Below are positions 3,630 through 10,685 of a DNA stretch of 64,000 nt, in pieces; the stretch's first letter is position 1; each line of letters starts with the position of its first letter. Source of the DNA: an uncultured Gammaproteobacteria bacterium (GTDB taxonomy: Bacteria > Patescibacteriota > Microgenomatia > JALYQM01). The notes under the pieces were generated by a model, which was not told where the DNA came from, searched no databases, and was given only the letters and a program-made list of their open reading frames with translations. Location: the NCBI GenBank assembly GCA_964535655.1, contig CAZHTP010000001.1, positions 98,573-162,572 on the forward strand. Direction: 5' to 3'. The translations under genes were made by a program, and so were the position numbers.

Positions 3630-3698
3630 TTTGGGATTTTTGTGAAGAACATAGAGAGCAATTTTTAATTTCATTTTTTTTATTTTAGGCCAAGGCAA

Positions 3699-3742
3699 GG
3701 ACGAAGCGTACGCTTCGGCTCGTGCATGCGCACGCTTCGTCC
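3699..3742. terminator. GC-rich 11-bp-stem hairpin (GGACGAAGCGT...ACGCTTCGTCC) between convergent genes. It is a putative terminator without a classical U-tract.
   Basis: A perfect inverted repeat lies at 3699-3709 / 3732-3742, with an internal 14-bp palindrome GAAGCGTACGCTTC. A T-run lies on the + side upstream. Confidence 0.4.
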
Positions 3743-3771
3743 TGTTAGACGCGGGTGGGAATGATTAGTTC

Positions 3772-4704
3772 CTAGTCGCGCGGGTCGGAGTGATTGGAAC
3801 TATCATCTGTGCCTGGGCCAAGCTTGGTTTCGGCCTGATACGAAACGCTGATCGTGGGTGCGACCGAAAGCTGCGTTCCGTCATCTGCATAGAGTGTTGC
3901 CTCCATGACAATAGTGCGAGTTGCACTGTCGTCAGGCAAACCACTAACCTCATTGACTGGCATTCCTGGCCACTGCCAGTAAATGTTGAACCCAGTCGAT
4001 CCGGCTTGTATATTGAATGTGGTAGGCCCCTGGATAACCCGGCCGTTTTCTGTTACCTGCCAAGTAACGTATCCGGTGCCAGTGCTTAAACTGACGGTTC
4101 CTGGGGTGGATTGGGTCTCGACGCCGGTCGCGCTGGTGAGATAGCTGAAATAGCCTACGTTGTAGGTAAACGATCCCGAAGGTGCTGGTGGGATGACATT
4201 GGTTGTGGTAGGCGCAGGTGTAGCTGCGGATGCGGGGGCGCTATACTGCGTTCCGTTGGTCACCCAACCGCTACTGGTATGAAACCAGTTTGGTTGGATA
4301 CCACCGTTGGTCGCCTCGCAGTTCAGCTCAGTCGATGCGGCGAAACAGCGTCGGTCGTCGACAGAGTAGGCGCCCTCACCAATGGTGCCTCCGGTTGCGT
4401 CTCCGCCCGGACCGTAAAATGTTGCGGCGGATTGATTGCATGCAACATAAAAGGTCGCAAAGTCAGAGCTATTGCCAGTGAACGAGGGGCAAGTCGCGGT
4501 GGGCTCGGCCTTGGGGGCGGCGGTTGCCACAGGCACGGCTGGTGGTGCGTAGGTGGGCACGGGTCCTTTCGGGCCTGCGTCCTCTGGATCGGCCGGTTTT
4601 GCCCAGGTGGTAGAAACGAACGCGAACACAATCGCGATCGCGAGTAAAAGTGTGATCCGTTTCAAGGTAAGTCTCCTTATTCTTACAACGCGAATGCGTT
4701 GCAT
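3772..4704 (-). CDS. Secreted hypothetical protein encoded by a GC-rich, compositionally foreign gene. It has a signal peptide, a Pro/Ala-rich linker and two Cys-containing Thr/Gly/Ser-rich domains.
   Basis: The N-terminus MQRIRVVRIRRLTLKRITLLLAIAIVFAFVSTTWA|KPADP looks like a signal peptide. An alternative TTG start with an AAGGAG RBS lies at 4665. GC content is visibly higher than in flanking genes. Many overlapping antisense ORFs here are GC artefacts. Confidence 0.6.
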   Translation of the reverse strand: MQRIRVVRIRRLTLKRITLLLAIAIVFAFVSTTWAKPADPEDAGPKGPVPTYAPPAVPVATAAPKAEPTATCPSFTGNSSDFATFYVACNQSAATFYGPGGDATGGTIGEGAYSVDDRRCFAASTELNCEATNGGIQPNWFHTSSGWVTNGTQYSAPASAATPAPTTTNVIPPAPSGSFTYNVGYFSYLTSATGVETQSTPGTVSLSTGTGYVTWQVTENGRVIQGPTTFNIQAGSTGFNIYWQWPGMPVNEVSGLPDDSATRTIVMEATLYADDGTQLSVAPTISVSYQAETKLGPGTDDSSNHSDPRD

Positions 4705-5020
4705 TTTGATTAGTCCGACGCGTACGGCAGTTCCCTTGCGCTTGGCTATGTAGCCAATTGTTCCCCTTGGGGGGGATTGTATTCGCAAAGAAAAGTGGAG
4801 AGATGGGGCCAAAAATTAGCCTCATTTTTCCACTTTTCTTAGGAATAGCTTTACAAATGAAATTTTTATATATTGCTCTCTATGTTAAAGAACAAATTCG
4901 GCGACAAGTGTCGCTAAGTCTTATCAACCGTAAACTTCTAAAATGAAGTGAGGTCGATTTGACCGAGTTATTATACTATAGGATAGTTGTTTTTGTCAAC
5001 ACTATGGGATTTACTATTAG

Positions 5021-5323: not shown

Positions 5324-5435
5324 AATATTTATAATTCTTACAATATTACTAATATATATTAGTGAGAAACAAAATGTAAAGACTCACAAAATGTTATAGC
5401 ATTGTTTATTTTTAGTGTATAGTAACTTTTTTGTC

Positions 5436-9634: not shown

Positions 9635-10462
9635 TTATTTTATTCTTCGCGGCCCACCACCTCTGACAACAGGAACAGGTAATTTTTCTTTTAGGATGTG
9701 ACGCGCTGTAAGCATTTCAGGGATATCATGTTGTGAAGCAAACAACAGTCTTCCAGCGGCCGTTCTGTGATTATCGTTTTTGAAAACTTCAAAATTTGGA
9801 CTTTTTAATTCATTATCACACCCTGATAGGACAAAAGTTTTTCGCTGTGATCTTTCCCGATTACTATTACCTGACCCAACTGTTATACAAAATGATCCTT
9901 CAGGTTTCAGGAAAGCAGCGAGTCGTGCAATCGCAGATCGTTTATCGGGATCGTCTTTCTGGGCAAATTGGCGAAATACTTCAGGATCCGCTCGATTGAT
10001 AACGATCGTATCAAAAGGAGTTCCATGATATGTATCAGTAAAGCCACGTATGCCGAGCTCGTAATGATGAAGTGTTGTGGGAGCAATAATTGGACTTAAG
10101 GACTTTATGAGATCTTCTATATCAGTTCGCGGATCGAATGATATTGCGGAGCCAACTTTAAAGCGAGCTGATTCCTCTATATTTCCTGGTACGTCTATCG
10201 TTATTTTTGCCATTAGCGTTTTAAATGCATCTGGACGATAGGCAACTCGTAGCCAATAATCTGAGGGTGGCTCTACATAAAATGCAGAAACTTCATCTAA
10301 TGCTAACCCAGCTCCTACAAATAACGCATTTCCACCTCTTTTTATCTTTCCCATGAGTTCAAGTGTTCTAAATGCGCGATAAAAGGTATGCATTCCAGGA
10401 AATCTTAGATAGGCTTCCGCTTCTTGATGGATTAGGCTGTACTTTCTGCGGCTGCTATCCAT
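9635..10462 (-). CDS. Hypothetical protein, possibly with a class I methyltransferase-like fold.
   Basis: The RBS GAGAAGG lies 5 nt upstream of the ATG. Motifs are weak (ALFVGAGLA, LKPEGSF). No confident family assignment is possible. Confidence 0.55.
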   Translation of the reverse strand: MDSSRRKYSLIHQEAEAYLRFPGMHTFYRAFRTLELMGKIKRGGNALFVGAGLALDEVSAFYVEPPSDYWLRVAYRPDAFKTLMAKITIDVPGNIEESARFKVGSAISFDPRTDIEDLIKSLSPIIAPTTLHHYELGIRGFTDTYHGTPFDTIVINRADPEVFRQFAQKDDPDKRSAIARLAAFLKPEGSFCITVGSGNSNRERSQRKTFVLSGCDNELKSPNFEVFKNDNHRTAAGRLLFASQHDIPEMLTARHILKEKLPVPVVRGGGPRRIK

Positions 10463-10656: not shown

Positions 10657-10685
10657 ATTATACTATAGGTCTTTATATAATTCAA
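10657..10685 (-). promoter_or_regulatory. Near-consensus promoter (TTGAAT-N17-TATAAT) ending 6 nt before the ATG at 10650. This implies a leaderless transcript.
   Basis: On the minus strand the sequence reads TTGAAT tatataaagacctatag TATAAT tcgcaa ATG. Confidence 0.4.

Follow-up and report, generated by a model that had tools for sequence, protein, structure and literature searches.

Here, we analyze a 64,000-nt stretch of an uncultured bacterium's DNA (hereafter the window, whose positions are used throughout) and describe, in the intergenic region between a merR gene and a response-regulator gene, a G+C-rich gene for a predicted secreted protein that comes with its own promoter, a long structured 5' leader and complementary 5' and 3' untranslated regions (UTRs). 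On balance, we favor a model in which the whole region (∼3630 to 5010, 1.38 kb) is a self-contained accessory expression cassette for an abundant surface or secreted protein, with a panhandle-stabilized mRNA. A single insertion in the common ancestor of a small clade of uncultured bacteria, which is probably Candidate Phyla Radiation (CPR)/Microgenomates-like, would have brought the cassette to a site that would repeatedly hold foreign G+C-rich cargo. A consensus sigma-70 promoter would drive strong transcription of an mRNA suited to high output and a long life by a hairpin-rich leader of ∼300 nt, a strong Shine-Dalgarno (SD) sequence and a very stable G+C-rich 3' hairpin. Three nested helices between the leader and the 3' UTR would close this mRNA into a panhandle, which, together with the terminal hairpins, would shield the ends from RNase J, a 5' exonuclease, and PNPase, a 3' exonuclease; the genes for both enzymes lie within the window. 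Alternatively, the panhandle might be a processing site for RNase III. The features to which this model refers are, in the direction of transcription:

4970 to 4999, minus strand: promoter TTGACA-18 nt-TATAAT, 12 of 12 consensus positions, the sole perfect match in the 64 kb
4666 to 4963, minus strand: structured 5' leader, ∼300 nt (folding compared with shuffles, RNAalifold)
4855 to 4886, minus strand: left arm of an inverted repeat (IR-L), consisting of the 5' arms of helices C (AACAUAGAGAGCAAU) and B (AAUUUCAUUU) (inverted-repeat search)
4788 to 4840, minus strand: large leader hairpin with an A-tract on its 5' side and a U-tract on its 3' side (−28.1 kcal/mol, z −6.1)
4734 to 4746, minus strand: 5' arm of helix A (GCCAAGCGCAAGG), overlapping the 3' half of a local hairpin at 4742 to 4757
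4673 to 4678, minus strand: SD sequence AAGGAG at a spacing of 7 nt to the TTG start, with corresponding SD sequences and starts in the homologues
3772 to 4665, minus strand: coding sequence of 297 aa with a TTG start (open reading frame [ORF], dN/dS, G+C at third codon positions [GC3])
3750 to 3795, minus strand: short direct duplication of 3779 to 3795 (NHSDPR codons), with a degenerate copy in the 3' UTR at 3750 to 3766
3698 to 3743, minus strand: G+C-rich 3' hairpin with 16-nt arms (3698 to 3713 and 3728 to 3743; −31.3 kcal/mol, z −5.0)
3689 to 3700, minus strand: 3' arm of helix A (CCUUGCCUUGGC) (cofolding)
3648 to 3676, minus strand: right arm of the inverted repeat (IR-R), consisting of the 3' arms of helices B and C (inverted-repeat search, cofolding)

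Results

The Cassette Occupies a Variable Site

The site lies downstream of a 100-aa HspR-like MerR gene and is convergent with a response-regulator/PAS-kinase gene pair. For comparison, we used related loci (given as L numbers), all of them metagenomic contigs; five or six sequences carry the architecture described here. At this site, the cassette is present in the window, L001, L002 and L017, and L003 carries an identical gene. The proteins encoded by the flanking genes are 88 to 99% identical among the cassette-bearing loci, and the MerR proteins of the window, L001, L002 and L017 form one group with 96 to 99% identity to each other. Identity to the cassette protein of the window is 49% for the homologue in L002 and 39% for that in L001, and the homologue in L017 is more distant.

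Conservation in place is confined to this clade of four lineages and breaks down outside it. The site is empty in L026 (MerR 89% identical to that of the window), L006 (86%) and L024/L025 (80%), with only 60 to 130 nt separating merR from the regulator gene; in L026 and L024/L025, the gap contains only a hairpin between the convergent genes, which looks like a bidirectional terminator. In L005 (MerR 92%), the site holds 309 bp of unrelated sequence (L005:6304-6612). This insert has one open frame for a hydrophobic peptide of ∼70 aa (…LLFIPGALFLYCAWQLL…ILATIMGIVLILAGLEVCFLF…) and may be another small cargo or a remnant. L022 (441-1149) and L023 (560-1148), with a MerR identity of 88%, contain an unrelated 212-aa gene with a GC3 of 0.60, compared to an overall G+C content of 0.39 for merR, and its own TTGACT-17-TATAAT promoter; the product has a cytoplasmic N-terminal part, C-terminal membrane helices and no Pfam family on record. 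Judging from these sequences, the merR/response-regulator site apparently collects different G+C-rich cargo.

Homologous genes are also found at two other sites. The L018 cassette separates the Competence and metallo-beta-lactamase (MBL) genes of comEC, two genes that overlap by 4 nt in L020 and L021. We rejected the idea that this cassette splits a comEC frame, as the closest homologues are naturally two genes. The homologue in L019 is located in the interval between argS and a gene for an M16 peptidase; in L021, a gap of 48 nt separates these two genes. In L019, the homologue is part of a three-gene G+C-rich block (L019:1167-3777) with genes for a membrane protein of 146 aa, family member P0006 and a secreted protein of 158 aa, and with a GC3 of 0.58 to 0.65 compared to 0.40 to 0.45 in the neighbors; the promoter of the third gene, TTGACA...CCCATAGTATAAT, is like that of the window.

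We found no recombinase or transposase among the neighbors or the 15 window ORFs scanned, no tRNA or other Rfam match at gathering thresholds in the 64 kb, and no target duplication at the cassette borders. A preliminary description of this DNA, made from its sequence, had proposed horizontally gained accessory DNA with a secreted product. The atypical composition of the gene, the empty sites in relatives and the homologues at two other sites agree with that proposal.

A Conserved Promoter and a Structured Leader Precede the Gene

Both hexamers of the promoter are adjoined by a CCYATAGT motif, and the −35 region and the CCYATAG motif are common to L002, L017, L004, L018 and L019. The longer form CCYATAGTRT occurs three times in the window (0.26 expected), each time on the minus strand. 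Two copies (4973-4982 and 4999-5008) adjoin the −35 and −10 hexamers of the cassette promoter, and the third (10660-10669) is upstream of a 275-aa ORF (9635-10462); the motif may be a lineage-specific promoter element or an operator.

With the transcription start placed ∼7 nt past the −10 hexamer, the leader has a minimum free energy of −95.5 kcal/mol (z −6.5 compared to shuffles). RNAalifold on five loci gave 53 leader pairs, 14 of which have compensatory double changes. Several pairs with compensatory changes fall in the large leader hairpin (RNAalifold columns 152-206), which may function as an attenuator or as a terminator of the upstream merR transcript. The local hairpin TTGGCUA/UAGCCAA at 4742-4757 has a G-C to A-U change in L001. 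The 5' half of the conserved leader has a G+C content of 30 to 37%. Neither the leader nor the 3' UTR matched an Rfam family at gathering thresholds, and at E values up to 10, only hairpin-shaped chance matches were obtained; a profile search with the leader matched cognate loci only.

In one metagenome-assembled genome (MAG; GCA_030855825.1, contigs JALYQM010000006 and JALYQM010000008; L004:6330-6476 and L001:1-135), an element interrupts the leader a few bases past the promoter; its terminal inverted repeats are imperfect and ∼26 bp long (TGAATTCAAAGCGGAAATGCACCACTT / AAGTGGTGCATTTCGTTTTAGAACTCA), and the assembly breaks inside it. It looks like an insertion sequence (IS) that parts the gene from its promoter.

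The 3' End Combines a Duplication with a Stable Hairpin

The preliminary description had noted a repeat of the coding 3' end just downstream of the gene and a G+C-rich terminator hairpin. The repeat is confirmed: positions 3795-3779 and 3766-3750 match at 15 of 17 nt, which none of 5,000 shuffles equaled, and the duplication is present in L017 and L002 as well. The hairpin is also real, with 16-nt arms and a free energy of −31.3 kcal/mol, but its assignment as a terminator is not supported: the stem is followed by an A-rich run (UUGCCUUGGCCUAAAAUAAAAAAAA) rather than a U-tract, and a terminator scan did not call it. Lacking a U-tract, the hairpin therefore does not qualify as a canonical intrinsic terminator. 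Its stem is unchanged in L001, L002 and L017; in the corresponding position, L018 and L019 carry G+C hairpins that are just as stable (−33 and −37 kcal/mol, respectively) but unrelated in sequence. By this comparison, the 3' hairpin is conserved as a structure and not as a sequence. An attC site, as found in integron cassettes, with paired RYYYAAC and GTTRRRY core sites around an imperfect palindrome, was considered and rejected; the hairpin is preceded by GTCTAAC, but the complementary GTTAGAC is missing downstream.

Over its last eight codons and its 3' UTR (3772-3800 and 3745-3771), the cassette of the window is closest to L017, with 82 to 95% identity to L017:1575-1640. The C-terminal domains of the window and L017 proteins are barely alignable, and the body of the coding sequence is closest to L002. 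This mosaic of 3' tail and coding sequence hints at past recombination inside the cassette.

Leader and 3' UTR Are Predicted to Pair

The inverted repeat is composite (15 + 10 nt) and flanks the gene but not the promoter. A distance of 18 nt separates IR-R from the convergent response-regulator gene, counted from the stop codon of that gene, and within the window the 15-mer is found only at the two arms. IR-L is invariant in L001, L002 and L017, and the two arms co-vary in L018. There, helix C is kept with a T/C difference, which gives a U-G pair on the sense RNA only, and helix B changes from AAUUUCAUUU/AAAUGAAAUU in the window to AACCAUU/AAUGGUU through three double compensatory changes. Helix A, which pairs the proximal leader to the sequence just past the 3' hairpin, consists of GCAGAAGGC with GCCUUUUGC in L001. 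The coding sequence in L019 is flanked by an inverted repeat of its own, which differs from that of the window and matches perfectly over 13 nt. The exact pattern of the window repeat had no match in 185,579 reference genomes, and six pattern matches in Joint Genome Institute (JGI) metagenomes were dismissed as chance.

Because RNAduplex-type scoring allows giant loops and was uninformative, we used cofolding. Cofolding of leader and 3' UTR predicted 34 to 38 inter-UTR base pairs, with an inter-UTR ΔΔG of −27.0 kcal/mol for the window, −30.8 kcal/mol for L001 and −18.5 kcal/mol for L018, compared to −5.5 to −9.5 kcal/mol for shuffled sequences; none of 100 shuffles was as good. With the full leader, helices C and B were predicted in the window, L001 and L018. 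The SD sequence of the window is not paired to the 3' UTR in the cofold, and the predicted helices lie 55 to 220 nt upstream of it. BLAST similarity between the window and L018 extends ∼10 nt past the IR-R arm, to 3638, and also covers the promoter region, ∼110 nt upstream of IR-L. On this comparative sequence evidence, the leader, the 3' hairpin and the predicted 5'/3' complementarity are all shown to be under selection.

The Gene Encodes a Predicted Secreted Protein of an Orphan Family

Between 3772 and 4812, the minus strand has one long ORF. The preliminary description had it begin at ATG 4704, a codon that is not conserved. We place the start at TTG 4665 instead: this codon follows AAGGAG at a spacing of 7 nt, homologous genes begin at the corresponding position after GGAGG or AAGGAG, and a public protein identical to this one was called with 297 aa. 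Compared to L002, dN/dS is ∼0.2, and the ORF is therefore protein-coding and under purifying selection.

The signal peptide, Pro/Ala linker, two domains and four Cys residues reported initially are all present. The signal peptide comprises residues 1 to 22 (MKRITLLLAIAIVFAFVSTTWA|KP). Read directly from the sequence, the N terminus (M-KR-ITLLLAIAIVFAFVS-TWA|K) is of the Sec type, in which a basic n-region and a hydrophobic core precede a small-x-small cleavage site, and all six homologues have an equivalent N terminus. The protein, which has 275 aa in its mature form, continues with the Pro/Ala linker (∼35-55), an N-terminal domain (∼56-145) with the four Cys residues and the motifs DRRCF, PNWF and GWV, a second linker rich in Pro/Thr/Ala, a C-terminal beta-sandwich (∼160-280) and the conserved tail SNHSDPRD.

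As in the preliminary description, no family was recognized: searches of Pfam, NCBIfam, PHROGs and PDB sequences gave no match, and neither Pfam nor NCBIfam revealed an S-layer or cell-wall anchoring domain (a match to UpsA pilin at 19.5 bits, compared to a cut-off of 130, is noise). In public data, the family has only six members. A word-indexed search of 5.8 billion proteins yielded three of them; the other three (P0004-P0006) were detected when 1.84 billion cluster representatives were searched exhaustively with an HMMER profile, which also returned two repetitive chance matches. Plasmid, phage and viral-contig collections contained no member, and we rejected an origin from such elements for this reason. 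AlphaFold2 with the six-sequence alignment modeled two all-beta domains with a mean confidence (pLDDT) of 60.7 overall and 70 to 80 in the domain cores; Foldseek against the PDB found only generic Ig-like sandwiches at E >0.001. At this confidence and with matches to generic beta-sandwiches only, we rejected a structure-based assignment of function. Altogether, the gene product is predicted to be a two-domain, all-beta protein of an orphan family that is exported via Sec, and we infer that it acts as a surface-exposed or secreted factor.

Composition Sets the Gene Apart from the Window

The preliminary description had remarked on the high G+C content of the gene and on a burst of antisense ORFs, and both stand. 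The coding sequence has a G+C content of 0.570 compared to 0.404 for the whole window. Sliding windows of 894 nt outside the locus have a mean of 0.401 (SD 0.029, maximum 0.468), which puts the coding sequence at a z of ∼5.8 and makes it the top value in the 64 kb. The G+C-rich tract extends from ∼3700 to ∼4800 and takes in the 3' hairpin and ∼135 nt of the leader. GC3 is 0.586 compared to 0.317 ± 0.030 in 48 other ORFs (maximum 0.417), and an index like the codon adaptation index (CAI) is 0.543 compared to 0.722 ± 0.028 in other ORFs (minimum 0.657). By sliding-window G+C and codon usage, composition in the window is thus far from uniform, and the gene is an extreme outlier. In other frames, six ORFs of at least 60 aa overlap the gene, because a G+C-rich gene has few A+T-rich stop codons.

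Amino acid composition accounts for about half of the G+C excess (expected G+C 0.48, expected GC3 0.318), and it is the source of the G+C content of 0.58 at second codon positions (GC2). The plus strand of the window has a positive GC skew throughout and carries 49 of the 61 ORFs (about four-fifths); in minus-strand genes, the frequency of C at third positions (C3) is about twice that in plus-strand genes. Part of the C3 excess of the coding sequence is common to all minus-strand genes, but the gene is still far outside that group. The DnaK gene shows no such codon shift, and GC3 is at most 0.42 in every other ORF of the window. As much of the C3 excess is minus-strand skew and DnaK is unbiased, translational selection for C-ending codons was rejected. 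All copies of the family are G+C-richer than their surroundings (0.52 to 0.61 compared to 0.38 to 0.46), and their GC3 ranges from 0.48 to 0.75.

The Insertion Is Not Recent and Its Protein Evolves Rapidly

Relative to the window, synonymous sites in the flanking genes are saturated (proportion of synonymous differences, pS, 0.68 to 0.79), and the cassette carriers are therefore different species. Four orthologous loci within one MerR clade indicate that the insertion predates their split; having occurred before at least four lineages separated, it is not recent. The preliminary suggestion of a relatively recent acquisition is contradicted by these data, i.e., by the same place in four lineages, the saturated flanks and copies that are all still G+C-rich.

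At nonsynonymous sites, divergence (dN) is 0.44 to 0.57 in the gene compared to 0.02 to 0.09 in the flanking genes. The protein evolves 5 to 25 times faster than its neighbors at replacement sites, as expected for a surface-exposed or secreted factor. Three other readings were considered and rejected. Conserved flanks around a diverged gene could point to allelic replacement; however, the flanks are also saturated in synonymous divergence (dS), and faster protein evolution suffices. Allele swapping in one population was considered for L002 and L017, which come from one sample and have contigs with identical end positions; however, a nucleotide comparison of the two merR genes shows differences of 10 to 25% per 60-column block, and these are therefore different organisms. 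Finally, the gene does not behave as a target of a diversity-generating retroelement: no repeat of at least 30 nt in the 64 kb involves it, no reverse transcriptase was seen, and divergence extends over the whole protein.

Discussion

Several observations weigh against a panhandle-stabilized cassette and limit how far the model can be taken. The co-variation essentially comes from one contrast, that between the window-type clade and L018, with L001 added for helix A, and co-variation of the arms is also expected for repeats that act at the DNA level and are bound by one protein. Transcript ends were predicted from sequence, no terminator was found past IR-R, and the 3' arm may thus not be transcribed together with the gene. 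Because the large leader hairpin has a U-tract, most transcripts could end upstream of the coding sequence. The G+C richness may be the trace of a very G+C-rich donor that amelioration has not yet erased, or a high GC3 may be held by selection; conversely, the conserved leader, which moves together with the gene, is A+T-rich in its 5' half and argues against a uniformly G+C-rich donor. Moreover, the cassette borders have no mobility gene, tRNA gene or target duplication, and the structure model, which is of moderate quality, gives no functional clue.

Two alternatives concern the origin of the G+C richness. Recent horizontal acquisition from a G+C-rich donor, with amelioration still pending, would explain the extreme GC3 and codon usage, the absence of the gene from several relatives and the fact that no relative has an A+T-rich version. 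We consider this scenario unlikely, given that orthologous cassettes occur in four lineages with saturated flanks and one MerR clade, that no donor-like homologue was found in any searched collection, and that the 5' half of the co-traveling leader has 30 to 37% G+C. Conversely, the gene could be native, with a G+C content that stems only from a Thr/Ala/Gly/Pro-rich protein and from selection on high expression, and with no transfer at all. The GC2 of 0.58 is explained by the amino acids and part of the C3 excess by local strand skew, the promoter matches the consensus, and in S-layer genes codon bias goes along with high expression (PMC3666127). A native gene is nevertheless very unlikely because close relatives have empty sites or other cargo, homologues occupy other insertion sites, and the codon shift is missing from DnaK and other genes in a window in which no other ORF exceeds a GC3 of 0.42.

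Two further alternatives assign the flanking repeats to DNA rather than RNA. The repeats could be recombinase sites of an invertible switch, with a 1.2-kb segment that flips relative to a fixed promoter outside it and gives phase variation. As in known invertons, short inverted repeats flank a determinant of a fast-evolving, surface-type protein, and the composite 15 + 10 bp repeats leave out the promoter and co-vary in their arms. However, all six assemblies have the same orientation, neither the immediate surroundings of the locus nor the scanned window ORFs revealed an invertase or other recombinase, the repeats are part of a larger nested complementarity of leader and 3' UTR that, like helix A, is not expected of recombination sites, and the mismatch between the arms in L018 is a G-U pair on the sense RNA; we regard an inverton as quite unlikely. 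The repeats could also be the terminal repeats of a non-autonomous transposon, similar to a miniature inverted-repeat transposable element (MITE), that is mobilized in trans by a transposase from another locus. In line with this idea, the repeats flank the gene, the family is found at three insertion sites, and the unrelated IS-like element with terminal repeats of ∼26 bp in the leader of one MAG indicates that transposition is active in the lineage. By contrast, the similarity between the window and L018 runs outside both arms, which means that the repeats do not form the ends of the unit; a target-site duplication was not seen; and the window contains a single copy of the repeat, the exact pattern of which is absent from the reference genomes and matched in JGI data only by chance. 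Transposition of this kind is therefore highly improbable.

The stabilized-cassette model can be compared to several known systems. Genomic islets are single-gene insertions between convergent core genes, and the locus shares with them an atypical composition, presence, absence or replacement at one site, homologues elsewhere and a secreted or surface cargo. It differs in that the cargo is G+C-richer than the host, while mobile DNA is usually A+T-richer, and in that it has no integrase, tRNA gene or direct repeats but has its own conserved promoter, leader and 3' structures. The locus is a genomic islet with an orphan secreted protein, an unusual RNA architecture and a persistent G+C anomaly. 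Long-range pairing closes the transcript in hok mRNA, where it causes fold-back inhibition, and in rRNA precursors, whose stems are cut by RNase III. Here, too, sequences that flank the functional part are predicted to pair over a long range; unlike in those RNAs, the cargo is a 297-aa secreted protein, and no antisense RNA partner was identified.

S-layer genes have long stabilizing 5' UTRs and biased codon usage (PMC3666127). The Lactobacillus slpA gene, the 5' UTR of which stabilizes the mRNA, resembles the cassette in its very strong promoter, long structured 5' UTR, deviant codon usage and fast-diverging secreted protein (PMC3666127). By contrast, the protein described here is small (275 aa in its mature form), no S-layer anchoring or lattice domain was detected in it, and 5'-3' pairing is not described for slpA. 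In the icaR mRNA of Staphylococcus aureus, pairing between the 5' and 3' UTRs covers the SD sequence and represses translation (PMC3868564). The predicted complementarity of the cassette UTRs is likewise significant; however, the predicted helices are located upstream of the SD sequence, which is free in the window. Because the SD sequence is left free, we infer a stabilizing or processing role rather than repression.

The conserved leader and the predicted 5'-3' UTR pairing suggest a possible route for expressing an accessory factor, and mRNA stabilization by the panhandle, if it occurs, would add a rare bacterial example of positive 3'-UTR-dependent control. That a high GC3 is kept across saturated synonymous divergence bears on the use of composition as a clock for horizontal transfer. 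Bacteria of this kind depend on contact with other cells, and most of their surface and secreted proteins are orphans; these proteins are likely tools of the contact lifestyle. The locus is a compact and well-bounded case of the gain of such a factor, in which one hotspot holds different G+C-rich cargo in sister lineages. More speculatively, and only as a tentative possibility, the cassette could represent an undescribed class of self-contained cassettes in uncultured small-genome bacteria, each made up of a promoter, a structured leader, a G+C-rich ORF for a secreted protein, a G+C-rich 3' hairpin and closing 5'/3' helices, that insert at intergenic hotspots without an element-encoded recombinase, and whose G+C-rich coding sequence and panhandle are held by selection for a long-lived mRNA instead of being donor leftovers.

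Other Observations in the Window

On the other side of merR, the divergent hrcA-merR intergenic region contains a block that is near-identical in three species (window 5324-5400, L002:1-75 and L017:1-75; TAACATTTTGTGAGTCTTTACATTTTGTG) and that probably is a heat-shock operator and promoter region. A second gene for a secreted protein, of ∼1230 aa, runs off the start of the window, where its C-terminal part is encoded at 54-1970 (L003:3487-7173). The protein has GSDH and PKD domains, four PA14 repeats and Pro/Thr/Ser linkers, and the gene contains 121-nt direct repeats (834-954, 1296-1416 and 1752-1872) that reflect the domain repeats.

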